DNA from: Promethearchaeota archaeon
Lineage (GTDB): Archaea; Asgardarchaeota; Lokiarchaeia; Sigyniarchaeales; SOKP01
Direction of reading: 5' to 3'
Assembly (NCBI GenBank): GCA_048939995.1
Contig: JBHLOY010000009.1
Location: 21,456-85,455, forward strand
Length of the DNA: 64,000 nt
Positions 9,414 through 61,240 of this stretch are shown in pieces; the stretch's first letter is position 1, and each line of letters starts with the position of its first letter. The notes beneath the pieces are model-generated. The model searched no databases and had not been told where the DNA came from. It saw only the letters and a list, made by a program, of their open reading frames with translations. Position numbers and translations under genes: made by a program.

Positions 9414-9520
9414 TTTAAAATTTTTAAAAAAGATTAAATACCCTTATTTTTATTTAATTACTGTTAAGATAGTTTTCGACAAAATTATCTAGTATATTGG
9501 GTTTAAAAAACACAAGTAAG

Positions 9521-10054
9521 ATGTATAACGCCATTTTTAAAGTAGTCATTGTTGGGGATGCTGGATGTGGTAAGACCACACTAGCAAAGAGATACTTAAC
9601 TGGTAAATTTTTGCCGGATTCGCAAATGACAATCGGAGTTGATTTTGAAACTAAGGATATTTATTTAAATGGAATTCACGCAAAGTTGATGGTCTGGGAC
9701 TTTGCTGGTGAAGAAAGATTTCGATACATGCTACCTAAATATATTCATGGGGCAATGGGAGGAATTTTACTGTATGACACCACAAATAACACTTCTTTCT
9801 CTCATGTATATGATTGGTTATCTGTCATAAAAGAAACCAATGAGAACTTTCCAATTTTTTTGGTTGGAAGCAAAATTGATCTCAATTCGCTTCGAAAAAT
9901 AAGTTATAAAGAAGGGAAAAATTATTATAAATCTAGTGGTTTAGATGGATTTATTGAGTGTTCTAGCAAAACTGGAGAAAATGTAGAAAGGGTTTTTGAA
10001 AGTTTAACAAAGATGATGTTAAATATTGCCTGTTTGGAATTGAAAACAAAGTAA
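9521..10054 (+). CDS. Rab/Ras-like small GTPase (copy 1)
   Basis: G1 'GDAGCGKT', switch I 'MTIGVDF', G3 'WDFAGEERF', Rab-like 'YIHGAMGGILLYD', G4 'GSKIDL', G5 'ECSSKTG'. The ATG at 9521 (MYNAIFKVV) parallels copy 2. The ORF track begins at an upstream TTG (9497). Confidence 0.9.
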   Translation: MYNAIFKVVIVGDAGCGKTTLAKRYLTGKFLPDSQMTIGVDFETKDIYLNGIHAKLMVWDFAGEERFRYMLPKYIHGAMGGILLYDTTNNTSFSHVYDWLSVIKETNENFPIFLVGSKIDLNSLRKISYKEGKNYYKSSGLDGFIECSSKTGENVERVFESLTKMMLNIACLELKTK

Positions 10055-10066
10055 ATTATGATAGAA

Positions 10067-11326
10067 TCATATGTTATTCTTTATATTTCTTGAGAGATAA
10101 ATTATAGGGATTAAAAGACCAATTCCAAAAATTATAATGAATCCAAAAATTGCATAGAGATTTAGTTCTGCAATATATCCCGCAGCAATAGGTAACAATC
10201 CAAACCCTAATCCTTTTAATACCTCATTTATAGTTGAATATTTACCCTTATTTTGCTCAGCACCATAGTCGATCATAATTTTTAATGAAACTCCTTGAAT
10301 AAGACCCACATATAAACCGGTAGTGGCACTTATTATCGAAATAAAAAATAAATCATGAAATAAAATAATTAGTAGAGCGCTTAAAATCACCAAAGTAAGA
10401 CTAATAAGTACAGATATCTTTCTTGTATGGATTTTCATATAATTAGTCCAAGTCAAACCAACTAACTGCCCTATTTGCACTGCAAGTTGAATTAAATAAG
10501 CATAATAGGAGGGCCCTCCAAAAGCTTTAAGAAAAATAGGGTAATTAAATCGAAAGAGAGATTTTGCCATAGTATACCCGATTAATGCCAACCAAGAAAA
10601 TAAGATAGGAAAAACAATCATCTTATTATTTGATTTTTGTCCTAATTTATCTTCTGAATTTATGAAAATAGTAGCATTTTGGTCTGAGGATTTTAAATCT
10701 GTGTCTTTTTTAATGAAAAAGGCAAATGGTATTAAAAAAAAAGAAAGCATCCATGCTAAAAACATTGTAAAATATTCATTTAATGAAAAAGCCCAGAAAT
10801 ATCCGAAGAGAAGTCCAGTAATAAACCCAATATTCCATGAGAAGTTAAAAGTTCTAAAATTTTTCGTAGATTTTTTTTCATTACTTACACTTTGCCATTT
10901 ACTTAATAGATTATAGCAATTAGGCCAATATATTCCCAATTGAATACCGCTTATGATACGTATAAATATTAAATAAATTGGATCAAAGTAAATCATCTGA
11001 GTCACTAATATAACAGGGGTAGTAATACAAGATAAGATAATAGAATTTCGCACACCAAACTTATAGGTAATTAATTGACCAACAATCGGTCCAAGAATGT
11101 AAGCAACTGCAGGAGCGGAATTAATATACCCGAAAATACTTTCACTTACATTCTGATAAAAATAAATATAGTTTAGAAAAGCTCGTTCAAAAATTGAAAT
11201 TGAAAATAATCTTATAAAGGAAAGAAGAAATATTGGCCATGCGCGATAAGAAATGATAGCATTACATTCAGTAGCAGGTGTTTTAAATGGAATTGGTGGA
11301 GAAAATTCTGACAAATCCCGAATCAA
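10067..11326 (-). CDS. MFS-like transporter (12-TM type)
   Basis: Polytopic with two 6-TM halves separated by a cytoplasmic loop. Its TTG start overlaps the TGA stop of the upstream lyase gene (TTGA). Confidence 0.6.
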   Translation of the reverse strand: MIRDLSEFSPPIPFKTPATECNAIISYRAWPIFLLSFIRLFSISIFERAFLNYIYFYQNVSESIFGYINSAPAVAYILGPIVGQLITYKFGVRNSIILSCITTPVILVTQMIYFDPIYLIFIRIISGIQLGIYWPNCYNLLSKWQSVSNEKKSTKNFRTFNFSWNIGFITGLLFGYFWAFSLNEYFTMFLAWMLSFFLIPFAFFIKKDTDLKSSDQNATIFINSEDKLGQKSNNKMIVFPILFSWLALIGYTMAKSLFRFNYPIFLKAFGGPSYYAYLIQLAVQIGQLVGLTWTNYMKIHTRKISVLISLTLVILSALLIILFHDLFFISIISATTGLYVGLIQGVSLKIMIDYGAEQNKGKYSTINEVLKGLGFGLLPIAAGYIAELNLYAIFGFIIIFGIGLLIPIIYLSRNIKNNI

Positions 11327-14958: not shown

Positions 14959-16200
14959 TTAATAACCGTTATTTGACTGGTTTTTGTCCTGCATTTCATT
15001 TATTATTTTATTGCGTTCCTTTGGGGTTAATGATGACATTTCTCTGATAAACTCTTCTTTTTCATTAGGGTCCCATTCAAATTTTTCAATGATGGTATAA
15101 AAGTCTTCTGTAAATGCGGTAATCTCGACTTTTTTTACTTCAGACTTTTTTTCAGTGCTTTTTCTTTTCGAATAAGCGTTCTTCTTGGAGTAAAAGAAAT
15201 AAATAGGAACCACGATACTAACACTAATCGCTCCAATAATTAAGAATACATTTAACAAATACCAAGGGAATTGATCAATATAAAAGATAAATATTCCTTC
15301 TAAACCAATTTTCGGATCATGTGAAATATCTGCTCCATGAGGGTATATTAAATATATTTTTTGATAATCATTATCATAATCATCCATTCCAAGATTAGTT
15401 GCATTTACAGCTTTTAAAAGTCCATCAACTAGTACATTTTGATTCCAAGAGAATATTCCGATGAATGAGTTATTAAGGGTTGAGACTGCTTTTTCATTAA
15501 AGGCATATCCAAATTCTTCATCTTCCGTTTCCTCAATTTCATCATAATTTGTTTCTGACTCTAGGCTAATATATAATGCTAGTTTTGATAAAGTATTATT
15601 AAAGGGAAAGTTGATATCAAAATCAATCTTTGGTTTAGTTGGAATCATCAATGCATCATCTCTTATAACAAATTCTTCTGGAATATAAAGATGCATGGTA
15701 AAAATACTGTCACTTGAGTTAATGATGAAATGATGCACAGAGGTTTGAGCTGTGATAACCTCTTGTTGATATTCTGCCGGATCGAAGCTGTCTAATTCGA
15801 TTTCTTGTATGTTATTATCAATGGTTGGATCAAATATACCATTATCGTTAATATCTACAAATTCAATAAGTTTTCTAATAATAACACTAAACTCTATTTC
15901 AAATTCAGCTTCGCTCTCACTAGTATATTCCGATTCGTAGCTCACCTCAAATCTTATTCCTTCACTATTATATCTCACTCTTAATTCTATTTCATCTCTT
16001 TTTGTTCCCTGTCTTAACAGAGATTGGACTTCAATTTCATTAGAAGAAAGTGTAATGTCAGTATCTCTCAGATTTAACTCTTCAAAATCGTCATCAACGT
16101 GATCGTCATCATCGTCAGAACCTAATACCGAATTTGAATTAAGCATTAAAGTAAACACGAATAATAATATAATTCCCGCTATTAGATTCTTTTTTTTCAT
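14959..16200 (-). CDS. Acidic secreted, C-terminally TM-anchored protein with cytoplasmic tail (tandem paralog A)
   Basis: Signal peptide, an Asp run (SDDDDDHVDDD), a conserved core shared with 16277..17299, a 'DINDNGIFD' Ca-loop-like motif, a TM helix near residue 320 and a charged tail of about 70 aa. Confidence 0.7.
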   Translation of the reverse strand: MKKKNLIAGIILLFVFTLMLNSNSVLGSDDDDDHVDDDFEELNLRDTDITLSSNEIEVQSLLRQGTKRDEIELRVRYNSEGIRFEVSYESEYTSESEAEFEIEFSVIIRKLIEFVDINDNGIFDPTIDNNIQEIELDSFDPAEYQQEVITAQTSVHHFIINSSDSIFTMHLYIPEEFVIRDDALMIPTKPKIDFDINFPFNNTLSKLALYISLESETNYDEIEETEDEEFGYAFNEKAVSTLNNSFIGIFSWNQNVLVDGLLKAVNATNLGMDDYDNDYQKIYLIYPHGADISHDPKIGLEGIFIFYIDQFPWYLLNVFLIIGAISVSIVVPIYFFYSKKNAYSKRKSTEKKSEVKKVEITAFTEDFYTIIEKFEWDPNEKEEFIREMSSLTPKERNKIINEMQDKNQSNNGY

Positions 16201-16276: not shown

Positions 16277-17299
16277 TTATTTTATTCTTCGCTTTCTATA
16301 GATAAGGATACTACTAGCACTAATAACTGCAACAACACCTATTATAACCCCGATCAACACAAATGGTAACCAATCAGTTCCAGCCTGTATAGAATAAATA
16401 CTCATTGTTGGGTCATGGTAAATATAATCTCCCCTAGGATAATTAAGGTAAAATTTCTGCTCACTTTCATCATCATCATCAGTTTCTATTTCACTTGCTA
16501 AAACTTGTTTCGAAATTCCATCAATGGTTGCATTTTCCTTCCAAGTAAAAGCCCCTATAAAATTATTTAGTTCAGTTTTTACACCTGATTCATTGGATGT
16601 ATATCCATCTTTCTCATCCTCAGTTTCTTCCTGGTATTCATATTCACTACTTGAACTAAGTTTAACATATAGAGCTAATTGTGAGTTTCCATTAAGATAG
16701 TTGAAATTATTTATCTCAATGTCAATTTTCAAAGAGGTTGGTGCGATAAAGGTTCCGTTTACTATTGCAAATTCTTCAACAACGTATAAGTGAGCTGCAA
16801 AAGTACCATCAGTACTATTTATAAATATATAGTGTAAGGTTGTATCGGTAGATATATTAGATGAAGTGTAAACTGCTGGTTTGAAACTATCTAAAGGAAT
16901 TTCTTGAATTGTGGTATCAATTAAAGGCTCATAAATACCATTACTATTTAGATCAACAAATTCGATTAATTCTCGAAAGTTTGCTTCAAATTCGATTTCA
17001 AATTCTGTTTCATTCTCAGCTATGTATTCAGACTCATAGCTAACTTTAATATCAACGCCATTATTATCGTATTTAACATTTAATTCAATTTGATCAATTG
17101 GACCCTCGCGTAATAACGATTCTACCTTAATTTCATCTGATAAAAGCTCGACTTCAATGTGACGTTTAGTTGATTCTTCATAGTCATCATCAATTCCATC
17201 ACTGTCTTCATCTGTGGAGGCTGTGACATTTAATGAAGAACTAAAAGCTACTAATGAAAGTATCATTATCAATAAGAACCCATAATTCCTTATTTTCAT
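16277..17299 (-). CDS. Acidic secreted, C-terminally TM-anchored protein (tandem paralog B)
   Basis: Signal peptide, 'DEDSDGIDDD', a core colinear with 14959..16200 (LLREGPIDQIELNVKYDNNGVDIKVSYESEY...EFVDLNSNGIYE), and a C-terminal TM plus a 'YRKRRIK' stop-transfer. Confidence 0.7.
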   Translation of the reverse strand: MKIRNYGFLLIMILSLVAFSSSLNVTASTDEDSDGIDDDYEESTKRHIEVELLSDEIKVESLLREGPIDQIELNVKYDNNGVDIKVSYESEYIAENETEFEIEFEANFRELIEFVDLNSNGIYEPLIDTTIQEIPLDSFKPAVYTSSNISTDTTLHYIFINSTDGTFAAHLYVVEEFAIVNGTFIAPTSLKIDIEINNFNYLNGNSQLALYVKLSSSSEYEYQEETEDEKDGYTSNESGVKTELNNFIGAFTWKENATIDGISKQVLASEIETDDDDESEQKFYLNYPRGDYIYHDPTMSIYSIQAGTDWLPFVLIGVIIGVVAVISASSILIYRKRRIK

Positions 17300-17915: not shown

Positions 17916-18162
17916 ATTTATTTGGTTTATTAAGCTGGTATTAATTATACTATTTTTATTAAATCATTTACCGGATTGAATTATTATCTATTAAATATAA
18001 ATTCATACTTTTTTATGATTTTTCCATGGAAACATTTCTTTTCTGCTAAATCTTAGAGCTGTTAAAAGTTTATTCTTAAATAAAGAGAATAGATAAGAAC
18101 TAGGATTTCTAAGCTAAATGTTTATATTTAAGTTTTGTATATATTTTTTCATATTTTTACGA

Positions 18163-18170
18163 TTATATAA
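18163..18170 (+). promoter_or_regulatory. TATA-box-like element upstream of the Lys-rich peptide gene
   Basis: 'TTATATAA' about 38 nt upstream of the ATG at 18205. That spacing fits an archaeal TATA at about -26 plus a short SD-containing leader (GGGAAGG). AT-rich background makes this weak. Confidence 0.3.
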
Positions 18171-18204
18171 AAAAAGTAGTGAAACACAGGAAAAGGGAAG
18201 GATA

Positions 18205-18291
18205 ATGGCAAAAAAGAAAGCTCCTAAGAAAAAACCAGCACCTAAGAAAAAAGCAGCCCCCAAAAAGAAACCAGCTCCAAAAAAGAAATAA
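18205..18291 (+). CDS. 28-aa highly basic AKKKP-repeat peptide (histone-H1-tail-like composition)
   Basis: MAKKKAPKKKPAPKKKAAPKKKPAPKKK*. Differences between repeat units fall mainly on third codon positions of this frame (gct/gca/gcc, cct/ccc/cca, aag/aaa), which argues for the + frame. The minus-strand ORF 18114..18329 is its mirror artefact. Confidence 0.45.
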   Translation: MAKKKAPKKKPAPKKKAAPKKKPAPKKK

Positions 18292-18324
18292 ACTCCTAAA
18301 AAGAAAACCGCTGCTAAGAAATAA
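18220..18324 (+). repeat. Imperfect 18-bp tandem repeat (about 5.8 units) encoding (A/P)PKKK(P/A)
   Basis: Units start at 18220, 18238, 18256, 18274, 18292 and 18310. Periodicity and frame continue for 10 more codons past the TAA at 18289 to a second TAA at 18322. Confidence 0.8.
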
Positions 18325-18393
18325 TACATATGAAAGAATAACTATTATTTTTTTTTAACTTTAGTTTTTTAAAGCTTAACGATATAGCATATT

Positions 18394-19454: not shown

Positions 19455-19979
19455 ATGTATGACGCAATTTTCAAAGTTGTTATTTTTGGTGATGCTGGGA
19501 GTGGTAAGACGGCTCTAACTAAGAGATTTATGACAAACTTATTTATATCAGATACACAAATGACGATTGGAGTAGATTTCATAGTTAAAACCATCGAAGT
19601 TGATGGGAAAGAGATAAAACTCCAGATTTGGGATTTTGGTGGTGAAGAAAGATTCAGATTTCTCCTTCCAAGATATATTCGTGGTGCGAGCGGAGGACTT
19701 TTGATGTATGATATTACTAGCTATCCTTCCACCTTTCATATTGAAGATTGGTTATCTGTTATACGTAGAACAGAGGAAACATTTCCGATTATTCTTGTAG
19801 GAGGTAAAGCAGATTTAGAGGAATTCCGTCAAATTTCTTTTGATGAAGGATTAAAAATTACTATTTCACAAGGTTTAAATGACTTTATAGAATGTTCTAG
19901 TAAAACAGGACTAAATGTTGAAAAGATTTTTGAAAGCCTTGCTAGCATAATGCTTAAAATATCAAATGATAAGTATTGA
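19455..19979 (+). CDS. Rab/Ras-like small GTPase (copy 2)
   Basis: G1 'GDAGSGKT', switch I 'MTIGVDF', G3 'WDFGGEERF', 'YIRGASGGLLMYD', G4 'GGKADL', G5 'ECSSKTG'. No C-terminal Cys lipidation motif. Confidence 0.9.
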   Translation: MYDAIFKVVIFGDAGSGKTALTKRFMTNLFISDTQMTIGVDFIVKTIEVDGKEIKLQIWDFGGEERFRFLLPRYIRGASGGLLMYDITSYPSTFHIEDWLSVIRRTEETFPIILVGGKADLEEFRQISFDEGLKITISQGLNDFIECSSKTGLNVEKIFESLASIMLKISNDKY

Positions 19980-19984
19980 ATCTA

Positions 19985-22258
19985 CTAATCTTTATTATTT
20001 TTAATAGGAACAAAAATTCCTTTTTTAATCAAATTTAATAGGGCTTCATAATCCTTTGGTCCACAAACATTATCTGGAAGTAGATATATAGCATAAAAAT
20101 AAGTTAGATTATAATCCTTCATAAAATTAGTTGCTTTTTTGACCATCTCTTTTTCATTTTGGTTTAGTTTTGCCTCTTTAGGAATTGAGACTCTTAATGG
20201 ATAACGAAATGAAACATTTAAATCACTATCAATCAGTTTCTGTATACTACGGAATGGTCTTAGGTCACCTTCAAAACTTTCGATTAATTTGCTGTAATAT
20301 TTGTAAATATGATAAGCCAATGATTCAATAGAATAAAGAAAATTTTTAGAAGGATTACTCTTCATAATAACGATTACCCGCAAATTGATAAATTCTGTCA
20401 TTAATATAATAGAATTTTTATATTCTACTTTAACAGTTCGCGATTCCTTTGCACCATCTATTACTTCAACCCCAAAATTATGAATAGCTTGAAGAAATCC
20501 AGATATTAAAGTGGGATCTAATTGTTTTTCCTCAAAGGATTGGGAATATAAATCGATTCCGGTTTTTGTATGCAATACAATTATATATTTTAAATTCAAA
20601 ACATCATTACATTGTTCTAAAAATGTTTGCAGCTTATCTCTTTTTCGAGATTCCCTCTTCTTAACCACTACATAACTCGAGTAACCTATAGTCATACCAC
20701 CAATAACAATACTTCCAATTATTATAAATAACGTGAAATCTAGCTCATTCGGGATTAGATTCGCTTCTATAAAAAATGTCTGAGATTGAACACCCGCATC
20801 AGTTTCATTATTCCAAAAAATATAAGCAATATAATCCCCCTCAATTGCATTTGTTGGAATTATATATGAAAATTCTAATGGTGATGAAGGTTCTTCTAGT
20901 ATTTGTTTAGTAGTTTGGTATTTTACTATATCAGCTGGATTGAAAAGTAATAGCGTGTAATTACCGGCTAAAGGAGATAAAATTGAAAAGCTTAATTCCT
21001 GCCCTGCTTGATATTCAGTTATAGGAGCATTTATAATAAATTCTATATTTGGAGAATTCGCTCTTATTTCCCATTCAGCACTATTTTCTATAGTGGAATT
21101 TGGGATTATTAAATAATTAGTAACGGGGTCAATTATAATGTCTGAAGAAATATTTATACTATTCTTTATTATATTCAGGTTAGTCCAACTTCTTGGTAAG
21201 AGGAATTTTATCGTGTGATTATTAGAAACTCTTGTGATTATAGGATTAACAACCCAGACAATAGAATCGTTGAACTGGATATTAACAGAACTTTCAACAT
21301 TAAATAAATTATTGATATGAAGGGTATAATCAAGTTTAAAATTCAAGCTCTCAGTTTTATTATTTTCAATCTTAAAGCTAACAATTTCATTATTAGGATG
21401 ATAATTGATATCACTCCTCTTTAGATATCCATTTCCCTCACCGTATCCATTTGATACTTTATAAAAATTACCATTGATTTGAGTAGTCATATTGATTTCT
21501 TCTGGAAAAACAGATGAATTAATTTTTTGAATTAATCTATATAGAAAGGTTACTCCTTGAGAGCCCATCGACCAAGAACCACCATTGAAAGAAGAGCTAT
21601 ACAAATCGGGATTTTTAGGGTTTATATCATTTTTATACCAGAAGTAATCTGATTTAGGACTAGTTCCTATGGATGATCCATCTATGATAATATAATAATC
21701 CCCAATAGGAAGAAAAATAGGGCTAGAAAAAGTTTGGCGATGCCAAGAGGGTAAAAGAGAAAATGACATATTTAAATTTCTTAATGGGCTATAAGTTTGA
21801 GTATTTGGGGCTTTAGTTAAATCATCATAACCTTTTATCTGAAAATAAATAGGTTTACTTTCAGAGGATTCATTATTACCATATATTTCGATACCATAGA
21901 TTATAGTGGGGTCTATGATTTTTAGTTGTACTCCTAAACCATCCTTAAATTTATTAATAATAGCATAATTAGCGGGAATATCTTCAATTGCTTTTATCTC
22001 AGACCCAAACTCTACCTTGCTAAAATTTAGGTTTATATCTTCAATAGCCCAAGAGGAGCTAGGTAAATTGAAGTCAAATGAACTTAAATTGTTATAAGTT
22101 CCTTTGTTAACTGAATATTCGAAAAAGTCAAATTTGGTATTTATATTTAAAGTACTGCTTGTTTTGACTAAAGAAATCCCATTTTCACTAATAAAACTAA
22201 AACCTAAAAACAATGCAAATACCAAAATTGAAAAGAAAAATAATTTTTTTGATTTCAT
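19985..22258 (-). CDS. Receptor-like single-pass membrane protein, paralog 1 (signal peptide, sequon-rich ectodomain, TM, cytoplasmic longin/Roadblock-like module)
   Basis: Signal peptide MKSKKLFFFSILVFALFLGF, an ectodomain of about 500 aa with many NxS/T sequons, the TM 'FTLFIIIGSIVIGGMTIGYSSYVVV' and a 225-aa tail with a beta-beta-alpha-beta-beta-beta-alpha pattern. Colinear with three other ORFs in the window. Confidence 0.8.
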   Translation of the reverse strand: MKSKKLFFFSILVFALFLGFSFISENGISLVKTSSTLNINTKFDFFEYSVNKGTYNNLSSFDFNLPSSSWAIEDINLNFSKVEFGSEIKAIEDIPANYAIINKFKDGLGVQLKIIDPTIIYGIEIYGNNESSESKPIYFQIKGYDDLTKAPNTQTYSPLRNLNMSFSLLPSWHRQTFSSPIFLPIGDYYIIIDGSSIGTSPKSDYFWYKNDINPKNPDLYSSSFNGGSWSMGSQGVTFLYRLIQKINSSVFPEEINMTTQINGNFYKVSNGYGEGNGYLKRSDINYHPNNEIVSFKIENNKTESLNFKLDYTLHINNLFNVESSVNIQFNDSIVWVVNPIITRVSNNHTIKFLLPRSWTNLNIIKNSINISSDIIIDPVTNYLIIPNSTIENSAEWEIRANSPNIEFIINAPITEYQAGQELSFSILSPLAGNYTLLLFNPADIVKYQTTKQILEEPSSPLEFSYIIPTNAIEGDYIAYIFWNNETDAGVQSQTFFIEANLIPNELDFTLFIIIGSIVIGGMTIGYSSYVVVKKRESRKRDKLQTFLEQCNDVLNLKYIIVLHTKTGIDLYSQSFEEKQLDPTLISGFLQAIHNFGVEVIDGAKESRTVKVEYKNSIILMTEFINLRVIVIMKSNPSKNFLYSIESLAYHIYKYYSKLIESFEGDLRPFRSIQKLIDSDLNVSFRYPLRVSIPKEAKLNQNEKEMVKKATNFMKDYNLTYFYAIYLLPDNVCGPKDYEALLNLIKKGIFVPIKNNKD

Positions 22259-24782: not shown

Positions 24783-25670
24783 ATGCAGAATTTCTGCACC
24801 AATTGTGGAAAACCACGACAAACTAGCTGGAAAGTATGCCCATATTGTGGAAAATCATTTATTCATATAGTTACTTCTCTCCAGCCAGTAGAATCTAAAC
24901 CACAATTTGATATAGTGGAAAAAAAAAGGATTTGGTTCACTAAGAAGAAGATAGCTATATTAATTGTATTATCTGTGATCGTTTTAGCTGGAATTTTAAC
25001 TCCCGTAATAATCTTATTTACTAATTATCAAATTAGAAATATAAATTATTATGTTAGCTACGGAACAATATCCAAATCATATAATTGTATGATTCCTCGT
25101 GAGACATATAATTACTATAATGATCTCTACCATCCTTCTCATGGAAGTAACGATTGGGATGTTGTTGCATCAGTCATAGCGTCCTACTGTACTCCAGATG
25201 AGCCAGAAATGGTAAAAATCGCTCAAGAAGTTAAGTCTCAATGCATTAATCAAAATGATGAGGAAGAGGTAATTAATGCCCTATTGAGTTTCACCCAAGG
25301 CATCACTTACGAATCTGAAATAGTTGATAGAGCAAGTTATCCTATAGAAACATTGATAGACAAAGGTGATTGTGAAGATTTATCCATCTTTTTTGGCTCA
25401 CTGGTAGAATGTTTAGGCTATGAAGCAATTATAATTTGTGTACTCATATTTGATAATGGTGATTGGGTTGGACATGCTGTTGTAGGGATTCATTTGGATT
25501 TTACTCCTTCCCATCATTCAAGTTATCCTCCAAGCCATTATTTAGACATATCAGAAGATAGTAATCAATATTGGTATTGTGAAACTACCTCACAAGGGTG
25601 GATGGTTGGAGAATTACCTGTTTCAGATCCTTCTGATTTTCAAGTACAGAGTTATGCATTTATTGAATAA
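24783..25670 (+). CDS. Zinc-ribbon / TM / transglutaminase-like (papain-fold) domain protein
   Basis: N-terminal 'CTNCGKP...CPYCGK', one TM helix, then 'GDCEDLSIFFGSLVECLGYEA', 'GHAVVGI' and 'YCETTS', which fits the Cys-His-acid triad of transglutaminase-like domains. Confidence 0.65.
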   Translation: MQNFCTNCGKPRQTSWKVCPYCGKSFIHIVTSLQPVESKPQFDIVEKKRIWFTKKKIAILIVLSVIVLAGILTPVIILFTNYQIRNINYYVSYGTISKSYNCMIPRETYNYYNDLYHPSHGSNDWDVVASVIASYCTPDEPEMVKIAQEVKSQCINQNDEEEVINALLSFTQGITYESEIVDRASYPIETLIDKGDCEDLSIFFGSLVECLGYEAIIICVLIFDNGDWVGHAVVGIHLDFTPSHHSSYPPSHYLDISEDSNQYWYCETTSQGWMVGELPVSDPSDFQVQSYAFIE

Positions 25671-46171: not shown

Positions 46172-46762
46172 ATGAGTGATGAAGTTAGTGAAGAATCAGT
46201 TTGGACAGGAATGATAAGGAAATATTGGTATGCAATAATACTCTATGGTATTGCTATTATCGGTGCTATTATAGGAGTTATCTTAGTATTTCTGACATTT
46301 ATTGCAGCCCCAGATATAGCTGGAGGAGGAACTTGGACTTTTGCACAATTTTCTGTAGGCGCTTTGATACTATGGTTTATATTTTTATTCTTGTGGGAAT
46401 TACTATTGGTAGGGCTCCCTGTTATTGGGTATCTTGCCATAGTAACAGTGATCTTTTGGTTTGTAGTTTTATCTGAAGAAGATAAAGCTATAATTAAAAG
46501 TAGGGAGAAAAAAGAGAGAAAAGTTAAAAAGACTAGTGGTGGTAGCGGAGCTGCTGGATTTCTATTCTTTATCGCATTCATTTTAGTTCTTGTAATTGAT
46601 GGCAATTTGTTTGCTGCATTTGATACATTACCTTATACATATTTTCTATTTGCTTATCTTGTAGGTGTTATGTGGACCGTTATCGTTCTGGGTATTCCTG
46701 TATTGATTATCGTTATAATTTATTATGGATATAAAGAATCAAAAAAACAAAAATCAGAATAA
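46172..46762 (+). CDS. Membrane protein, unknown function
   Basis: Six hydrophobic helices with a central basic loop (KSREKKERKVKKTSGGSG). Confidence 0.55.
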   Translation: MSDEVSEESVWTGMIRKYWYAIILYGIAIIGAIIGVILVFLTFIAAPDIAGGGTWTFAQFSVGALILWFIFLFLWELLLVGLPVIGYLAIVTVIFWFVVLSEEDKAIIKSREKKERKVKKTSGGSGAAGFLFFIAFILVLVIDGNLFAAFDTLPYTYFLFAYLVGVMWTVIVLGIPVLIIVIIYYGYKESKKQKSE

Positions 46763-49253: not shown

Positions 49254-50555
49254 GTGAATAAAGTGGTAAGGATAACGACTAAAGGTATGAGCGATTGGTT
49301 TGGACTTTTTGGTTCATCTACTTTTGGAGATGGTCTATGCCATTTTATAGGATGTATGGCTAATATGTGCGTTTTTGATACTAGCGAAGGGCTAGTTATA
49401 TTTGACTTGCCAATGAAACAATTTAGTTATAAAATATTTAAAGCAATCAGAGAAAGAACCAAAAAACCAGTAAAATATTTCATATATTCTCATGGTCATT
49501 TTGATCATGCATTTGCATTCGCACCTTTCATCGAAGAAGTAGGAAAAAAGGGTTGGATAATGCCTGAAGTTATAGCACATGAAAATTGTATTAAAAGATT
49601 CGAAAAATATAGGATGCTTAGTGAATATCACGTGTGGATTAATAAAATGCAATTTGCTTCACTAGGGATATTGAAGCATAAAAATTTAGTTTCTGCTTTA
49701 GAAACTCTTGATCCAACAATCATTTTAAAAGGAAATGATGCAAAATACAATTTTGAATTAGGAAGTATTCAATTTGATCTAAATCATGATAAAGGTGAAA
49801 CAGATGACTCAATCTGGTTATGGGTACCTGAGAAAGAAACGATTTGTGCGGGGGATTTATTCGTATCATCATTTCCTAATATAGGTAATCCTTTTAAGGT
49901 TCAGCGTTATCCTAAAGATTGGGCAATTGCTTTGGATAAAATGCTTGAAAAAGAGGCAAAGTATCTAGTTCCAGGACATGGTCCTCTTATAAAAGGGAAA
50001 GAAAAGGTTAAGGAGGCTCTATTAATAACTTCTGAGGCTTTGCATTTTGTGCATGATGAGGTTGTTAAGCGGCTTAATGCGGGGAAATGGTTTGAGCAAA
50101 TCTACTATGAGATGCTAGAAATATTCCCTAAAAAATTCAAAAACCATCCATTATTGCGGGAGATGTATGGATGTTATCGATTTGCAATTCACGCATCCTA
50201 CAGACTCTATCATGGCTGGTATAACAGTGGTAATCCTACAGAATTATTTCCTTCAAAGGCAACAGATATTGCACAAGAATTTTTAAAGCTCAATAGTGAA
50301 GAATCATACTTGAATCATGCAAAGAAGTTATTTGAGGAAGGTAAACTACAATTAGCATTGCATATTCTCGATGTCGTAATAAATGGAATCAATGAAAAGA
50401 AGGGCAGTATCTATTTAAAGGCTTTACAATTAAAATATGACATTCTAAAAATTAAAGTGGAGGAAGAGTCGTCTTTTATTGCTGCTAATATTCTTGATAA
50501 TGCGAGATATAATATAAAAGATAAGATTAAAACCATACAAAAACAATTAAAATAG
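49254..50555 (+). CDS. MBL-fold alkyl/aryl-sulfatase (SdsA1/BDS1-like) lacking the SCP2 domain
   Basis: 'YSHGHFDHAF', 'GETDDSIWLWVPEKETICAGDLF' and 'PGHGP', then the alkylsulfatase dimerisation-domain pattern 'YHGWYNSGNPTELFPSKATDIAQEFLKL'. No signal peptide. The start is uncertain (GTG at 49254, GTG at 49263 or ATG at 49287). Confidence 0.7.
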   Translation: MNKVVRITTKGMSDWFGLFGSSTFGDGLCHFIGCMANMCVFDTSEGLVIFDLPMKQFSYKIFKAIRERTKKPVKYFIYSHGHFDHAFAFAPFIEEVGKKGWIMPEVIAHENCIKRFEKYRMLSEYHVWINKMQFASLGILKHKNLVSALETLDPTIILKGNDAKYNFELGSIQFDLNHDKGETDDSIWLWVPEKETICAGDLFVSSFPNIGNPFKVQRYPKDWAIALDKMLEKEAKYLVPGHGPLIKGKEKVKEALLITSEALHFVHDEVVKRLNAGKWFEQIYYEMLEIFPKKFKNHPLLREMYGCYRFAIHASYRLYHGWYNSGNPTELFPSKATDIAQEFLKLNSEESYLNHAKKLFEEGKLQLALHILDVVINGINEKKGSIYLKALQLKYDILKIKVEEESSFIAANILDNARYNIKDKIKTIQKQLK

Positions 50556-52962: not shown

Positions 52963-54273
52963 TTAGGGTTTAAGGATAGCCCCTTTGCTTAGAGCAGTTA
53001 TGGTTTTATCTTTTGGTTCGGGGACGAAATTTAATACAATAAAAACACCGATAAATGCAACTAGGCTAAGAAGCATACCAGTACCGAGTGCCTGAAGAGA
53101 AACAAATGGGTTGCTAAAAGGATCTGCACTAAAAGGGTTAAGTGCATCCGAAATAACTCCCACTATAAATCCTCCCAAGCCAGCTCCACGTGCTATAGAA
53201 AATATTATTGAGTTTGCAGAAGCTCTAACTTCAGTATCATATAATTCAGAAGACCAAACACCAAAGATACCATGAAGACCAAAACCGAGTGTAATAAAAA
53301 CAGAGGATAAGAGGATCAGATTATCACTAAACAACATTTTAGTAAATATAGCAAATAATACCCCTCCAATTATTCCAATGATGTTATCGATTAGAAAAGC
53401 TTTTTTTCTACCCAGATAATCACTTAAAAACCCAAAGAAAAATAAACCGAATGCAGCTATTACCATAAGAACTAACATAAAAAGTCTTGAGATACTTTCA
53501 TAATTAGTTACTCCCGCGTTGGCAAATAAGTACTGAAAGAAAGTTGGTGCAAAGTCTACTAAGGAATGATAGGCAATTTCAGCGAACCAGAACAAAAAAA
53601 TAAGTAATACAGTTAACTTCCGCCATTTCCTACTGAAAATTTCTTTTAAACGTATTTTTTGTTTAATCTGTTTCTCCTTGCGGAGTTGTTCATATTCAGT
53701 CCAAATAGCAGATTCTGGTAAGGTGAACCAAAAGAGTATAATAAAAGGTATAGGAAAGAGGGCAGTAAGGAAACAGAACTGCCACGGACGGATCAGCAAT
53801 GTTGTTATTATTGCACCGATATATCCTAATACAAATGTAGAGTGAACTAAACCACCTGCAGCACCTCTTCTTTTAGGAGAAAAATGTTCGGATATTAACG
53901 AGAAAGAAATTCCCCAACTGACTCCCAAACCAGAAATCATTCTCATAATTGCGAATAGTACAAACATATTAGAAGGTACTAGCGAAGTCAAAGAGGAAAA
54001 AATCGCATCCCATGCTATAGAGATGATTAATGCATTTTTCCTCCCAAAACGATCTCCTAATTCACCGAAAAGAATGGCACCGGGAACAGTAAATACGAAT
54101 TGAAATGAAAAAACAAGACCTATCTGCCAATCACCGACTCCAAAGAATGTTTTTAGTTCGGGAGCTAGTAAAGTTACCATAACTAATGAATATCCATCAT
54201 GCATCCATGCAATAAATGCAGCCAACAGAATTATTAAAGTTGTAAATTTTGAATATTTTTTAAGTTCAGTCAA
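52963..54273 (-). CDS. MFS transporter
   Basis: MFS motif A 'GELGDRFGRKNALIISI', 12 TM helices and a central cytoplasmic loop. Confidence 0.85.
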   Translation of the reverse strand: MTELKKYSKFTTLIILLAAFIAWMHDGYSLVMVTLLAPELKTFFGVGDWQIGLVFSFQFVFTVPGAILFGELGDRFGRKNALIISIAWDAIFSSLTSLVPSNMFVLFAIMRMISGLGVSWGISFSLISEHFSPKRRGAAGGLVHSTFVLGYIGAIITTLLIRPWQFCFLTALFPIPFIILFWFTLPESAIWTEYEQLRKEKQIKQKIRLKEIFSRKWRKLTVLLIFLFWFAEIAYHSLVDFAPTFFQYLFANAGVTNYESISRLFMLVLMVIAAFGLFFFGFLSDYLGRKKAFLIDNIIGIIGGVLFAIFTKMLFSDNLILLSSVFITLGFGLHGIFGVWSSELYDTEVRASANSIIFSIARGAGLGGFIVGVISDALNPFSADPFSNPFVSLQALGTGMLLSLVAFIGVFIVLNFVPEPKDKTITALSKGAILKP

Positions 54274-54359: not shown

Positions 54360-55283
54360 TTATTGAGATATAAGGTAAAAAACGAAAGCGATACATCCTA
54401 AACTTGCCATAACAATACCCATAGCCCTACCCATTTTTTTTGCTGATAAACTTTGAATATAGGTTGAGGTAAGAATGCCAGTAATAGCAGAGCCAATTGC
54501 TAAGAAAAGGGAAATTTCAAAATTTATGTAAAATGTTCCTCTAAATGAAACTCCAAGAATTTGATATAAGGTAAAGGTAATTAGGCTAACAATGATACTT
54601 AATATAAGAGCAGTTCCAATACTCTTTTTAATTGGATAACCATAAAGAATTATTAAAGCTAAAACAATTATCAATCCTGAGTTTGCTCCAAATAAGCCTG
54701 AATTTATTCCGAGGAGAAGACCAAAAACTATAGCGACTATAAAATATAATCTAGATCCTGAAGGGATTACTTCTTCTATTTCAATTGTTTTTGCATTTGT
54801 TTTATTTTTTTGAGAGAGAATATCAATTTGTTCTTCAATTTCAACCTTTAAAAATCTCTTATATATGTTTCTAACCATCTTCTTTAACCGTTCGGTTGTC
54901 GTATATCCACTCTTAATAAAAATTAATCCCAAAAAAATAATGAATAGAGGTATGAACCAACCATAAATATTACCTATTGGAGTTAGCATCAATATAAATA
55001 CCCCGATAAAAGTAAAAACAAGAGCAATTAATATTAATATGAAAATATTTTTTTGAAATTTATATTCCCTTTTTCTTATATACCCAACACTTACTGCAAA
55101 GGCAGTTATTAAATCGTTTAATAAGTTAATTGCAATTGTTAAAAACACATCTCCAGTTAACATAAGGACTATTGGCATGACAAGCCCTTGTCCAGTTTGG
55201 CCAATAAAACACATACCAATACCAACAAGAGCCCCAATTATCAATAAGATAAATATCTGATATATTTCTAAAGCCATCGTCAA
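54360..55283 (-). CDS. TSUP (TauE/SafE-like) family permease
   Basis: Two 4-TM halves split by a charged loop, with Gly-rich helix starts (GALVGIGMCFIGQTGQGLVMP; LLGINSGLFGANSG). Confidence 0.6.
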   Translation of the reverse strand: MTMALEIYQIFILLIIGALVGIGMCFIGQTGQGLVMPIVLMLTGDVFLTIAINLLNDLITAFAVSVGYIRKREYKFQKNIFILILIALVFTFIGVFILMLTPIGNIYGWFIPLFIIFLGLIFIKSGYTTTERLKKMVRNIYKRFLKVEIEEQIDILSQKNKTNAKTIEIEEVIPSGSRLYFIVAIVFGLLLGINSGLFGANSGLIIVLALIILYGYPIKKSIGTALILSIIVSLITFTLYQILGVSFRGTFYINFEISLFLAIGSAITGILTSTYIQSLSAKKMGRAMGIVMASLGCIAFVFYLISQ

Positions 55284-55347: not shown

Positions 55348-56856
55348 TCAATTTGCTGCTATTCTTTTAGGGAATTTTGTCTGAGCCTTTAAATTCTGTT
55401 GAAGAAGTGTGTTGATCAATTTAAATCTTTCATCTCTAAAAGCGCGGTTTTCCCATAGATTATTAAGCTCATAAGGATCATTTTTTCGGTCATATATATC
55501 CCCATAATCAAGGCCCTCATATACAGTCAATTTGTAATGTTCAGTTACTAAATGCCTTAACCGAGCTTCAAGTGGACCTACTTCTTCATCATTTTCAATA
55601 AAAATACATGTTCTCACTCTTTCTCTGGGATTCATTAAAATGGGTGAAATATCAAAACCTTGCATGTCAGATGGATGATATCGACTATGTATACCCAATA
55701 AATTTAGAATAGTTTTTGGATAATCAATAGAACTTACCAAAGAGTTCGAAATTCCTGATTTTAGATATCCAGGTACTTTCCAGATCAATGGAAGTTGCAA
55801 TACACCGTTGAATGGGCATGGTCCTTTAAAGAGTAGGCCGTGTTCGCCCATTAAGTCACCATGATCACTCATGAATACTATAATGGTATTCTTTGAATAG
55901 CCTAGTTTATCCAACGCTGCAACTATTTGCCCTATACTATAATCAACATAGGATATTGCCGCATAAGTTAAAGCCGTCATCTTTTGAACTTCTTCTTTAC
56001 TTGACTCCCGTAAAAAGGCTTTTTTAAATGGTGGATTCTTTAAATGAGTGCCTAAAAATTTATGTTTATACAGATTTTGGATATCTGTAAAATTTGGAGG
56101 AAGTTCGATGTCATCAGGATCATACATATTTTGGAATCGTTCAGGAGGATATATAGGATAATGAGGATCTGGAAAGGAACAATGCAGATAAAAAGGTTTA
56201 TTCCCATATTCTCCTCTCGCATGTCTCTCTAAAAATGCAATTGTTCTTTCTTTCACATATGTAGTGTTATATAATTCTTCTGGTATCTTCTCACAGAAAA
56301 GCCTGAAAAGATTGTCGTAATTTTTTACTTTTTTTCTCATTTTTTCTGCTTCATGCGGAGATCTCTCTTCTAACCACTCTAAATAATGACCAGTACATAA
56401 AGATCCATTTCCCGAAATTAGTTCTACCTCTTTATAACCATAATAATCTAAAGGAAATGTGTTTGAAGTTGTTTTATAGTCTGCCCACTCATCTATGCTT
56501 TCAACTGACCTAGATTTATGCTTAAATGCCCCAAACCAAAATTGATGGTGAATTTTTCCGATAGCTGCTGTATGCCACCCTCTCTTTTTCAGTGTTTGAA
56601 TAATAGTGGGAATCTCTGGTCTTAAATTAATTCCATTACTCCTAACACCATGTACGTTAGGGTAAACCCCCGTAATCAGTGTAGCTCGATTAGGCATACA
56701 AATTGGATTAGTACAAAAGTGATTAGTAAACTGAACTCCTTCCTTAGCTAATCTATCCAGATTTGGGGTTTTTATAATTGGGTTTCCTGCATACCCTAAA
56801 TGATCAGCTCTTTGAGCATCTGTTATAATGAATAACACATTCATTTTGTCACTCAT
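55348..56856 (-). CDS. Type I (formylglycine-dependent) sulfatase, Cys-type, cytoplasmic
   Basis: 'LFIITDAQRADHLG' and the sulfatase signature 'CMPNRATLITG' (CxPxR...TG). No signal peptide. Confidence 0.85.
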   Translation of the reverse strand: MSDKMNVLFIITDAQRADHLGYAGNPIIKTPNLDRLAKEGVQFTNHFCTNPICMPNRATLITGVYPNVHGVRSNGINLRPEIPTIIQTLKKRGWHTAAIGKIHHQFWFGAFKHKSRSVESIDEWADYKTTSNTFPLDYYGYKEVELISGNGSLCTGHYLEWLEERSPHEAEKMRKKVKNYDNLFRLFCEKIPEELYNTTYVKERTIAFLERHARGEYGNKPFYLHCSFPDPHYPIYPPERFQNMYDPDDIELPPNFTDIQNLYKHKFLGTHLKNPPFKKAFLRESSKEEVQKMTALTYAAISYVDYSIGQIVAALDKLGYSKNTIIVFMSDHGDLMGEHGLLFKGPCPFNGVLQLPLIWKVPGYLKSGISNSLVSSIDYPKTILNLLGIHSRYHPSDMQGFDISPILMNPRERVRTCIFIENDEEVGPLEARLRHLVTEHYKLTVYEGLDYGDIYDRKNDPYELNNLWENRAFRDERFKLINTLLQQNLKAQTKFPKRIAAN

Positions 56857-59321: not shown

Positions 59322-59897
59322 TTATTTTTTTAATTTTTTAATTACATAGGCAATATTTTTAGCTAGATTTTTAAAAGTTTCCATCCCTTCTTCGTCATTT
59401 AAGACTTCTCCTGGTTTTTTTCCAATAGCCATATTCCAATAAGTACTTCCTACCACTATCATTTCTTTAATGAGGAAAAAGAAGTTTATGCTAGAGAAAA
59501 CATGATTAGCACCAGCTCGTCTGACGGCTACAACAGCTGCACCCACTTTATTCTTTAGATTTCTACCGGTAGCATAACCCGCACGTTCTATTAAAGCTTT
59601 AGTGCTGGTTGTCATATTAGAAAAATAGGTTGGAGATCCAATTATTATTCCATCAGCTTCAAGCATTTTTTGGATATAATCATTCATTTTATCTCCAGGT
59701 AAGACACATTTTTGATCATTATTATCAATACATTTTAAACATGCAGTACATCCTTGTAACTTTTCCATTCCGATCCACACATAATCACATTCTATACCTT
59801 CTTCTTCGAGAGTTTCCATAAGAATACTCAAACAATGATAGGTATTTCCTTCTTTTCGAGGACTTCCATTAAAAAGTACAACCTTCATGATACTCAA
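59322..59897 (-). CDS. Iron-sulfur flavoprotein (Isf-like flavodoxin-fold FMN reductase)
   Basis: 'MKVVLFNGSPRKEGNT' and the compact Cys motif 'CTACLKCIDNNDQKC' (CxxCxxCx7C). Confidence 0.75.
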   Translation of the reverse strand: MSIMKVVLFNGSPRKEGNTYHCLSILMETLEEEGIECDYVWIGMEKLQGCTACLKCIDNNDQKCVLPGDKMNDYIQKMLEADGIIIGSPTYFSNMTTSTKALIERAGYATGRNLKNKVGAAVVAVRRAGANHVFSSINFFFLIKEMIVVGSTYWNMAIGKKPGEVLNDEEGMETFKNLAKNIAYVIKKLKK

Positions 59898-60007: not shown

Positions 60008-61240
60008 ATGAAACCCGAACTAGTTATTCCAGTGCAAAATTGGGATTCTTTAAAGGTCGTTGAAGACTGCGCCGATGCGATTTATTTTGGAGTAAAATCT
60101 TATAATATGCGCCAAAAAGCTGAAAATTTTTTACTGGAAGATTTTAAAGATGTTGTAGAATTCTGCCATGCAAGAGATCATCTTATTAAAGCTTATCTAA
60201 CGACTAATATCTTAATTTATGATTCTGAATTGCAAGAACTGGAAAATATACTAGAGCATGCAAAATTAGCGGGTATTGATGCTATTATTGTTCATGATTT
60301 GGCAGCGATAATGTTTGCAAAGAAGTATGATATAAAATTCCATATTTCTACACAAGCAAATATATCTAATACGGAGTCTGCTAAATTTTTTGAAGGATTA
60401 GGAGCTGATCGCTTAGTTTTAGCTAGAGAACTTTCATTAGAGCAGATAAAACTTATAAAACATCATTTAAACAAAGCTAAAATCGAATGTTTTGTGCATG
60501 GTTCAATGTGTAGTTCAGTATCTGGCCGTTGTTATTTATCTGCCACAATTTGTGACTCAGAAGAATATTCAGCTAATCGAGGCAATTGTGTCCAGCCGTG
60601 TAGGCGAGAATGGAGAGTATTTGATGATGAAAACCATGAATTGCTATATGATGGTCAAATGTTTTTGAATGCAAAAGATTTATGCATGATTGAATATATC
60701 CCTAATCTCATTCAAGCAAAGATTGATGCATTTAAAATAGAAGGAAGAATGAAAGATCCCCTTTATATTAGCACTGTTTCAAGTTGTTATAGAGAAGCCA
60801 TAGATAGTTATTTTAACAATAACTTCACGAAACAGAAATTAGATGATTGGATGGAAAGAATATCAAAAGTTTATAACCGTGGATTTCATACGGGATTCTA
60901 CTTTCATAAGCCTACTTTGGAAGATATTCAATTAGCGGAAAGAGGGAATATATCCCCCTATAGGAAGCATTATTTAGGGAAGATCTTGTCTTTTGATAAA
61001 ACATCTAAAACGGCAAATGTTTTATTAGAAAGCCTGGAAATACCTTTACGAACTGGAGATGAAATTATCATTATTGGGGAAAATACATACCAAATTGAAA
61101 AAATACGGAAAATGGTGTATAAAGGGGAAAAAATTAAAACTATTGTGAGAAAACGATATAGTGATCCTGTTAAAATAAATTTAAGAGTCGATAACTGTGA
61201 AGAAAATGATAAGATATATATTCTTATAAAAAATGGGTAA
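60008..61240 (+). CDS. Peptidase U32 family protein
   Basis: 'ADAIYFG', 'ISTQANISN', 'RLVLARELSLEQI', 'ECFVHGSMCSSVSGRCYLS' and 'AFKIEGRMK'. Confidence 0.85.
   Translation: MKPELVIPVQNWDSLKVVEDCADAIYFGVKSYNMRQKAENFLLEDFKDVVEFCHARDHLIKAYLTTNILIYDSELQELENILEHAKLAGIDAIIVHDLAAIMFAKKYDIKFHISTQANISNTESAKFFEGLGADRLVLARELSLEQIKLIKHHLNKAKIECFVHGSMCSSVSGRCYLSATICDSEEYSANRGNCVQPCRREWRVFDDENHELLYDGQMFLNAKDLCMIEYIPNLIQAKIDAFKIEGRMKDPLYISTVSSCYREAIDSYFNNNFTKQKLDDWMERISKVYNRGFHTGFYFHKPTLEDIQLAERGNISPYRKHYLGKILSFDKTSKTANVLLESLEIPLRTGDEIIIIGENTYQIEKIRKMVYKGEKIKTIVRKRYSDPVKINLRVDNCEENDKIYILIKNG

Follow-up and report, generated by a model that had tools for sequence, protein, structure and literature searches.

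A 64,000-nt window of the genome of a Promethearchaeota archaeon (GenBank assembly GCA_048939995.1, contig JBHLOY010000009.1, positions 21,456–85,455 of the forward strand) encodes a 757-aa protein, here called REC1, directly beside a 174-aa Rab-like small GTPase. Both the topology of REC1 as a single-pass type-I membrane protein and its membership of an Asgard-only family can be assigned with high confidence, and structure prediction makes it very likely that its cytoplasmic tail adopts a longin/Roadblock fold. The initial annotation of this stretch had proposed a membrane receptor that couples an extracellular ligand to the adjacent GTPase. We consider the architecture and breadth of the family noteworthy, but genomic context lends no support to a direct link with the Rab-like switch encoded next to REC1. 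Our preferred reading, to which we give as a whole somewhat less than an even chance, is that the tail would dimerise and serve as a docking platform anchored in the membrane, with small GTPases that lack a lipid anchor as possible clients. The features of the window are collected in Table 1.

Domain architecture of REC1

Hydropathy analysis of REC1 identified a hydrophobic N-terminal segment (residues 5–25) preceded by KSKK, and only one further hydrophobic segment (residues 508–532), which is followed by the positive-inside stretch KKRESRKR. The N-terminal segment is a putative signal peptide, as inferred from hydropathy alone. The full-length AlphaFold2 (AF2) model has a predicted local distance difference test (pLDDT) score of 82.8, which rises to ~90 across residues 40–500, where all of the modelled secondary structure consists of strands. 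In the same model one unbroken helix over residues 511–554 spans the transmembrane and juxtamembrane regions. Hydropathy and model together bear out the earlier description of a signal peptide, an ectodomain, one transmembrane helix and a 225-aa tail (residues 533–757), with the ectodomain now delimited as an all-β region of ~480 residues.

The ectodomain had also been described as sequon-rich. By count this description is weak, with 13 sequons against 8.6 ± 2.7 in composition-matched shuffles, but several of these sites are conserved family-wide (LNFT, INMT, NNKT and GNYT in the consensus), and such conservation fits an extracellular, probably glycosylated ectodomain. Foldseek comparisons of the ectodomain model returned only generic chains of β-sandwich domains (multi-Ig, macroglobulin, FN3, adhesin and S-layer types) with low template modelling scores (TM-scores); examples are the macroglobulin (MG) domains of complement and α2-macroglobulin, adhesins, S-layer proteins and Fsx1. 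On these matches we rejected a specific enzymatic fold for this region, and from the model “receptor-like” and “adhesin-like” appear to be equally fair labels for it.

Predicted fold of the cytoplasmic tail

The tail was modelled as a single chain with AF2 from an alignment of 79 sequences, giving a pLDDT of 83.5 and a predicted TM-score of 0.76. In both the tail and full-length models, a long helix is followed by the secondary structure order E-E-H-E-E-E-E-H-H and then by a small extra domain. The longin-like core is composed of β1-β2-α1-β3-β3'-β4-β5-α2-α3, and the small C-terminal unit of a strand, three helices and a strand; on this topology we label the latter, provisionally, as winged-helix-like. 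The strand-strand-helix-strand-strand-strand-helix pattern that the initial annotation had read from the sequence is therefore in the right order in the model, although it missed the C-terminal subdomain.

Foldseek comparison of the tail model with the PDB retrieved longin or Roadblock domains as all 50 of the 50 best matches, with a best E-value of 9e-5, probabilities of 0.94–1.00 and target-normalised TM-scores of 0.5–0.6 on single-domain targets. These matches include AP σ-adaptins (best E 9e-5), ζ-COP, Sec22b, the SRX domain of SRα, SEDL and the TRAPP core, as well as Fuzzy/Inturned, Mon1/Ccz1, LAMTOR subunits and Rag C-terminal domains. As predicted, the tail has the β1-β2-α1-β3-β4-β5-α2-α3 order of longins and matches σ-adaptins, ζ-COP, Sec22b, SEDL and SRX with probability 1.0 and target-normalised TM-scores of 0.43–0.61. 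The LAMTOR and Rag C-terminal domain matches have E-values of ~1e-3; in the comparison with Roadblock proteins, the N-terminal helix of the tail is a continuation of the transmembrane helix and two C-terminal helices are present as in longins. Because the predicted topology mixes traits of the longin and Roadblock sub-families, we assign the tail to the superfamily only. At the level of predicted structure, the earlier proposal of a longin/Roadblock-like tail thus holds, without sequence-level support.

At the sequence level, no Pfam or NCBIfam model matches REC1 (Pfam cut-off E ≤ 0.1), nor does any Pfam model match its three paralogs in the window, REC2, REC3 and REC4 (E ≤ 0.01), or the tails of 33 divergent proteins that carry the same module. 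Robl_LC7 is matched neither by REC1 nor by these 33 carriers, and the curated longin models (such as Pfam Longin, Sybindin, Clat_adaptor_s and Fuz_longin) are unmatched by REC1, its paralogs and the 33 carriers alike. Sequence-profile searches of the PDB with full-length and tail-only alignments yielded only Ssr1698 (E 0.02–0.07 over ~50 residues), which we took as a chance match, and hhalign comparison of the tail profile with unverified sequences of σ2-adaptin and LAMTOR2 gave probabilities of ~1% or less.

Within REC1, the longin-like domain is the most conserved part, featuring the motifs TLISGFLQAIxNFG and EFxNLRLI, and in the family alignment conservation peaks at its central helix. Longin GTPase-activating proteins (GAPs) of the FLCN, NPRL2 and SMCR8 type carry a conserved arginine finger and a GP motif in the β1-loop-β2 region (PMC12290439). 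The family consensus in the β1-β2 region is DKKSGIDVYSQSF, of which the Gly alone is nearly invariant; with neither a conserved Arg nor GP in this region, we rejected an arginine-finger longin GAP identity for the tail.

Distribution of the tail module

We identified 98 full-length homologs of REC1, all of them from Asgard metagenome-assembled genomes or metagenomes and all annotated as “hypothetical”. A profile of the tail by itself matched 1,669 cluster representatives at 50% identity, 675 of them at E ≤ 1e-10. When the tail alignment was used in a word-indexed search of proteins, most matches were fragments. The module is always C-terminal in the matched proteins, which span 750–1,765 aa. 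Among 24 divergent carriers examined, a transmembrane segment directly precedes the module in 22 and an N-terminal hydrophobic segment is found in 15, several of the rest appearing truncated at the N-terminus; the other two are soluble. Based on the C-terminal position and the preceding transmembrane segment in most carriers, the tail is a cytoplasmic module that type-I surface proteins of Asgard archaea share across a broad class.

The ectodomains of the carriers match MG4, Ig-like and FG-GAP models above the Pfam cut-offs. In one carrier (P0232) the module follows an integrin-α-like FG-GAP propeller and an Ig-like domain, and in another (P0241) it follows MG4 and Ig-like domains. One of the two soluble carriers (P0234) combines winged-helix repeats, with PCI, DDRGK and UFL1-like matches, and a zinc ribbon; a short-ectodomain carrier (P0296) has a zinc ribbon at its C-terminus. 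Within the window, a 295-aa protein (24783..25670, + strand) has an N-terminal zinc ribbon of a type that is also attached to some tail-module proteins, together with a transmembrane-like hydrophobic segment and a weak match to the transglutaminase core.

Small GTPases in the window and near REC1-family genes

The 174-aa GTPase matches Pfam Ras (PF00071, E 1.7e-45), and all 60 matches listed in a comparison with PDB sequences belong to the Rab/Ypt family, the closest among those listed being Rab5a, Rab14, Rab8a and Rab11 (E ~1e-38). Its P-loop is GDAGSGKT, its switch I TIGVDF and its G5 motif SSK. The sequence also shows YIRGA and LMYDIT as well as IGVDF and KLQIW, which we take to be the RabF1 and RabF2 motifs. 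The G3 motif is WDFGGEE, with Glu at the position of the usual catalytic Gln, G4 is GKAD rather than NKxD, and the protein ends in KISNDKY with no C-terminal Cys for prenylation. Because of these three deviations, we label the protein Rab-like rather than a canonical Rab. The window encodes a second Rab-like GTPase (9497..10054), whose G4 motif is likewise non-canonical (SKID); the Glu-for-Gln substitution and the unusual G4 of both proteins are kept in their orthologs. This second gene is preceded by indolepyruvate-oxidoreductase-like genes (a label given by eye) and, like the first, converges on a gene for a membrane protein, here a major facilitator superfamily (MFS) transporter (10067..11326), with a gap of 12 nt.

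The ORF listing of the window and the stop positions agree with the initial annotation on the two ORFs, their strands and their 5-nt separation: the GTPase ends with TGA at 19977–19979, and REC1, on the opposite strand, with TAG at 19985–19987. As the genes are convergent, they are not co-transcribed. Across the window, 15 gene pairs converge, and the gap between their members has a median of 12 nt (range −9 to 36, with one outlier), so tight convergent packing is the general rule for genes in this genome, and we rejected the 5-nt gap as a meaningful signal.

For the analysis of gene linkage we sampled 78 genome and 79 metagenome loci, assigned each of 205 family genes to its best paralog in the window and probed the flanking sequence with queries of the Rab, Arf and Rag types. 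The metagenome loci came from an alignment-based scan of contigs; a single-protein scan gave nothing. A GTPase-like gene was present within 4 kb of 17/42 REC1 genes and of 2/162 genes of the REC2–4 subfamilies, immediately downstream in both of the latter cases. Of the 78 slots directly beside REC1 genes, 4 are occupied by a GTPase, and more than half of the REC1 orthologs have none within 4–10 kb. The convergent abutting arrangement is limited to the window and the closest relative (locus L001), with no example for REC2–4, and REC2, REC3 and REC4 of the window itself have no GTPase neighbour. In six other loci (L007, L019, L020, L092, L093 and L097), orthologs of the window GTPase (group A) lie 0.3–3 kb from REC1 orthologs in other orientations.

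By alignment, at least four kinds of GTPase occur near REC1 in the genome loci: group A; group B, which is Rab-like with the canonical Gln and in one locus (L005) lies on the REC1 strand, 168 nt upstream of the gene; a 964-aa GTPase-domain protein; and a degenerate P-loop plus coiled-coil protein. Group B members near other REC1 orthologs carry WDLAGQ and NKLD motifs. Three metagenome cases outside the alignment score like group A against a Rab-like model. A single ortholog group for all GTPases near REC1 was rejected, as the alignment separates groups A and B. An Arf-like gene follows REC tandems in the same direction in two loci (L076 and L150). At positions 8001..14163 of L084, a gene for a 1,447-aa carrier is followed on the same strand, after 177 nt, by a 178-aa Gtr1/RagA-like gene and also by a gene for a 355-aa protein with Arf/Ras Pfam matches; of all the GTPase associations observed, this one most resembles an operon. 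Judged by eye, the 355-aa protein seems to have a longin-like N-terminal half.

The conservation of the gene neighbourhood, which the initial annotation had put forward as a check, thus went mostly against coupling to the adjacent GTPase, with loose proximity of GTPases to REC1 on one side and, on the other, their near absence from the remaining subfamilies and their diversity of kind. We did not find a conserved receptor–GTPase gene pair, either in the REC1 slots or among REC2–4 genes within 4 kb. Within 5 kb of REC1, GTPases were conserved in 11 of 29 genome loci, a helix-turn-helix (HTH) gene paired with a 344-aa gene in 10 and an aldo-keto reductase in 9; since the non-GTPase genes are kept about as often as the GTPases, the pattern reads as decaying synteny. 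If the Lokiarchaeum genome measures ~5 Mb, the REC1 flanks contain ~6 GTPases per 100 kb compared with ~2 per 100 kb genome-wide, an excess that is about threefold, specific to REC1 and drawn from loci that are not phylogenetically independent. The genome-wide figure is based on 109 small GTPases among 5,381 Lokiarchaeum genes, or ~2% (PMC4917890).

Other conserved neighbours and further features of the window

Other members are among the most regular neighbours of family members. Co-directional REC4→REC2 tandems occur in 22 loci with gaps of 89–282 nt, which suggests that these paralogs work together. Paralogs aside, no neighbour comes close in conservation to a 195-aa polytopic membrane protein, whose gene lies downstream of REC2 and convergent with it in 29/47 loci, and likewise beside REC3 in 13/25. 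Against the benchmark of these two associations and of the gene set described next, the GTPase adjacency is weak.

A further set of genes recurs beside REC2–4, encoding an alkyl-sulfatase-like metallo-β-lactamase-fold (MBL) enzyme, an MFS transporter, a 307-aa membrane protein, an arylsulfatase-family enzyme, a flavin mononucleotide (FMN) reductase and a 412-aa protein. The sulfatase-family genes, the FMN reductase and the 412-aa protein recur in 29–43 loci. This block may be a functional unit or mere synteny among related genomes. By appearance, the 307-aa protein is possibly TauE-like and the 412-aa protein U32-like.

Two paralogous acidic proteins of 413 and 340 aa (14959..16200 and 16277..17299, − strand), each with a signal peptide and a C-terminal transmembrane helix but no Pfam match, adjoin the upstream side of a ZIP transporter gene and form another uncharacterised type-I surface pair. 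At 18210..18321, a tandem repeat of 18/36 nt (3–5 copies, 72–80% matches) underlies an F/G-rich 71-aa ORF (18114..18329, − strand), which is probably not a gene.

Table 1. Features of the window, with positions counted from its first nucleotide.
Feature	Position	Strand	Evidence or remark
REC1, type-I membrane protein, Asgard-only family member, 757 aa	19985..22258	−	Homologs, hydropathy, AF2 model
REC1 signal-peptide-like N-terminal segment, aa 1 to ~28	22175..22258	−	Hydropathy; low-pLDDT helix in model
REC1 ectodomain, aa ~29–507, predicted chain of all-β sandwich domains	20738..22174	−	AF2 pLDDT ~90 over aa 40–500
REC1 single transmembrane helix, aa 508–532, then KKRESRKR	20663..20737	−	Hydropathy and model
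REC1 juxtamembrane helix and predicted longin/Roadblock-like domain, aa 533–685	20204..20662	−	AF2 tail model, Foldseek, conservation
REC1 winged-helix-like C-terminal subdomain (predicted), aa 686–757	19988..20203	−	Secondary structure in tail and full-length models
Rab-like small GTPase, group A, 174 aa	19455..19979	+	Pfam Ras, PDB matches, ortholog alignment
Second Rab-like GTPase, 185 aa, paralog of group A, G3 WDFAGEE	9497..10054	+	~10 kb from REC1
REC2, paralog of the same architecture, 776 aa	46793..49123	−	phmmer E 8e-151 to REC1
REC3, paralog of the same architecture, 749 aa	50564..52813	−	phmmer E 9e-179 to REC1
REC4, paralog of the same architecture, 746 aa	56934..59174	−	phmmer E 9e-152 to REC1
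195-aa polytopic membrane protein, no Pfam match	46172..46762	+	Convergent, abutting neighbour of REC2
Genes recurring beside REC2–4	49254..50555, 52963..54273, 54360..55283, 55348..56856, 59322..59897, 60008..61240		Found in 14–43 loci

Interpretation of the REC1 tail

In the mechanism that we propose, a Sec-type signal would send the glycosylated β-sandwich ectodomain of ~480 residues outside, and the transmembrane helix, running on into the juxtamembrane helix, would hold the longin/Roadblock-like and winged-helix-like domains at the inner face of the membrane. The longin-like domains would pair by way of the sheet edge and the highly conserved central helix, the usual mode for Roadblock/longin proteins, either homotypically or between paralogs such as those of the REC4→REC2 tandem, and the dimer would present a membrane-tethered docking platform to a cytosolic partner. 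We hypothesise dimerisation because conservation peaks at the central helix, because Roadblock proteins dimerise through this helix (PMC10933270) and because REC4→REC2 tandems recur in 22 loci. The chances that the REC1 tail is a dimerising docking platform seem to us evenly balanced. The most likely class of client would be the abundant Asgard small GTPases without a lipid anchor, following a Ragulator-like logic, and the ectodomain would supply adhesion or ligand input.

The proposed client class follows from the role of the longin/Roadblock fold as a recurrent GTPase platform (Levine et al, 2013, as cited in PMC10933270), from the missing prenylation Cys of the window GTPase, from the operon-like cases at L076, L150, L084 and L005 and from the GTPase-denser flanks of REC1. 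Tran et al report that the GTPases of MK-D1 do not, in general, share operons with genes for Roadblock or longin proteins (PMC10933270), and missing linkage is therefore compatible with a partnership. Small GTPases are in our view plausible but unproven as a partner class; that the partner of REC1 is one of them is conceivable at well below an even chance, and that it is the adjacent Rab-like protein is improbable.

Several points weigh against the docking-platform reading. The fold assignment is itself a prediction, and Pfam, NCBIfam and PDB profile searches offer no sequence-level bridge from the REC1 family to any longin or Roadblock family. The β1-β2 region shows no conserved Arg or GP in the family alignment. 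Family-wide enrichment of GTPase neighbours is absent, with immediate or operon-like adjacency in ~2–5% of slots, which is near expectation because ~2% of Lokiarchaeal genes are small GTPases, and unrelated neighbours of REC1 are conserved about as often as GTPases are.

The reading of the initial annotation, in which REC1 and the adjacent Rab-like GTPase form a dedicated pair and the tail is the platform, guanine nucleotide exchange factor (GEF) or GAP that links an extracellular ligand to this switch, draws on the adjacency in the window, the identical convergent layout in L001 and the group A orthologs near REC1 in six further loci. REC1 is also the sole subfamily with GTPase-rich flanks, and a GTPase with Glu for Gln and a GKAD motif may need a partner for its cycle. 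We nevertheless consider a dedicated pair quite unlikely. The genes are convergent with a spacing typical of the window, the abutting layout recurs in a single locus, a GTPase fills few of the immediate REC1 slots, over half of the REC1 orthologs have none nearby, and those that are nearby are of at least four kinds with no single partner; the HTH plus 344-aa pair and the aldo-keto reductase are kept about as often, and the general separation of GTPases from Roadblock/longin operons in MK-D1 points the same way. We regard the adjacency as largely incidental.

An adhesin or envelope protein that functions independently of GTPases, with a tail for oligomerisation, sorting or cytoskeletal or cortical attachment in the manner of eukaryotic adhesion receptor tails, would agree with the adhesin-type ectodomains of the wider family (Ig-like, macroglobulin, FG-GAP propeller), with the many, often tandem, paralogs per genome and with the finding that the strongest conserved neighbours are family members and the 195-aa polytopic membrane protein rather than GTPases; dynein light chain and SNARE longins likewise act without GTPases (PMC10933270). 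Most characterised longin/Roadblock platforms, however, engage GTPases, operon-like GTPase neighbours do occur in L005, L076, L150 and L084, and our analysis offers no evidence for an alternative partner; we hold this explanation to be rather unlikely. We consider it very unlikely that REC1 belongs to a utilisation locus as a surface protein that binds or senses a substrate, with the winged-helix-like end or the longin-like domain as the signalling output, for example as a membrane-tethered regulator or a PAS/GAF/profilin-like small-molecule sensor. The REC2–4 block, conserved in 29–43 loci, with its MBL alkyl-sulfatase-like, arylsulfatase-family, MFS and FMN reductase genes points in this direction, as do a GH3 gene near two divergent carriers with a fucosidase near one of them, ectodomain matches that include accessory domains of carbohydrate-active proteins and the predicted winged-helix-like domain at the end of the tail. 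Conservation of the block may reflect only genome relatedness, though, REC1 itself lies outside such a block, the sulfatase of the window has no signal peptide, and no PAS, GAF or profilin structure is among the 50 best fold matches of the tail.

Extended to the whole class, the docking-platform reading would have hundreds of Asgard type-I surface proteins with adhesin- or integrin-like ectodomains pair, with themselves or with one another, through a longin-like plus winged-helix tail that recruits anchor-less GTPases to the plasma membrane and perhaps activates them, with REC1 and the group A GTPase as one such pair; in this full form we find it doubtful. Asgard archaea have about a hundred small GTPases without lipid anchors (109 in Lokiarchaeum) together with large longin/Roadblock expansions, and models of eukaryogenesis have to account for the route by which these GTPases get to membranes and for the signals that they answer. 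The tail-module family is a testable candidate both for a membrane tether of Asgard GTPases and for a link from the cell surface to intracellular switches. If the extended reading were true, such an outside-in module would foreshadow, in a prokaryote, the longin/Roadblock platforms that eukaryotes tether to membranes (Ragulator, TRAPP, tri-longin GEFs, SR). Even without a role for GTPases, the 1,669 clusters represent abundant, unannotated Asgard surface proteins, which bear on the surface structures and cell–cell contacts of cultured Lokiarchaeia.

Comparison with known systems

The expansions and fusions of longin/Roadblock domains in Asgard archaea are well known. Our literature search found no described Asgard membrane-anchored longin/Roadblock receptor or surface protein with such a tail; it did not extend to the asCOG tables, where a prior listing is possible. 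With the known expansions (~130 asCOGs, including GTPase and two-component fusions) REC1 shares the superfamily, the lineage and the theme of domain shuffling, whereas the accessible text of the sources describes soluble proteins and GTPase or two-component fusions rather than tails of type-I surface proteins (bioRxiv 10.1101/2020.10.19.343400; PMC10933270).

Eukaryotic type-I adhesion receptors (integrin α, Ig superfamily) resemble REC1 in their single-pass topology and in the Ig-like and FG-GAP ectodomains of its relatives such as P0232, and a conserved cytoplasmic tail could be a docking site. Integrin tails have no evident homology to the REC1 tail, so the parallel would be an analogy of design only. 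Prokaryotic partnerships between Roadblock proteins and GTPases are represented by MglB-MglA and by the conservon CvnA-D, which joins a membrane sensor, a Roadblock protein and a GTPase. There the parts are separate proteins from conserved operons, whereas REC1 would unite sensor-like and Roadblock-like parts in one polypeptide; it also differs from the conservon in having no DUF742 or kinase gene and no conserved linkage to a GTPase.

The trafficking longins (σ/μ-adaptins, ζ-COP, Sec22b/VAMP7, SEDL/TRAPP and SRα SRX) are the best structural matches of the modelled tail (E 9e-5 to 2e-3) and have the same β-β-α-β-β-β-α-α order, yet no detectable sequence similarity to it. Longin SNAREs are membrane-anchored as well; they are tail-anchored with an N-terminal longin and no ectodomain, whereas in REC1 the transmembrane helix precedes the predicted longin-like domain and a winged-helix-like domain follows it. 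The tri-longin RabGEFs (Mon1-Ccz1, Fuzzy-Inturned/CPLANE) act on Rab-type GTPases through longin heterodimers and give the longest Foldseek alignments (180–226 columns; 9rs9_A, 7q3d_C and 9l0d_A), although at query-normalised TM-scores of 0.34–0.38 and with three longin domains to the single longin-like domain of REC1.

In Ragulator, Roadblock dimers anchored by LAMTOR1 tether Rag GTPases to the lysosome. Unlike Ragulator, REC1 carries its anchor as a transmembrane helix in the same polypeptide as a large ectodomain, a multi-subunit scaffold is not evident, and the GTPase next door, a Rab-like protein, lacks the Roadblock domain at its C-terminus. Common to both would be a membrane-held platform of Roadblock/longin fold able to recruit GTPases that have no anchor of their own, and LAMTOR2/3 and the Rag C-terminal domains are themselves among the structural matches of the predicted tail.

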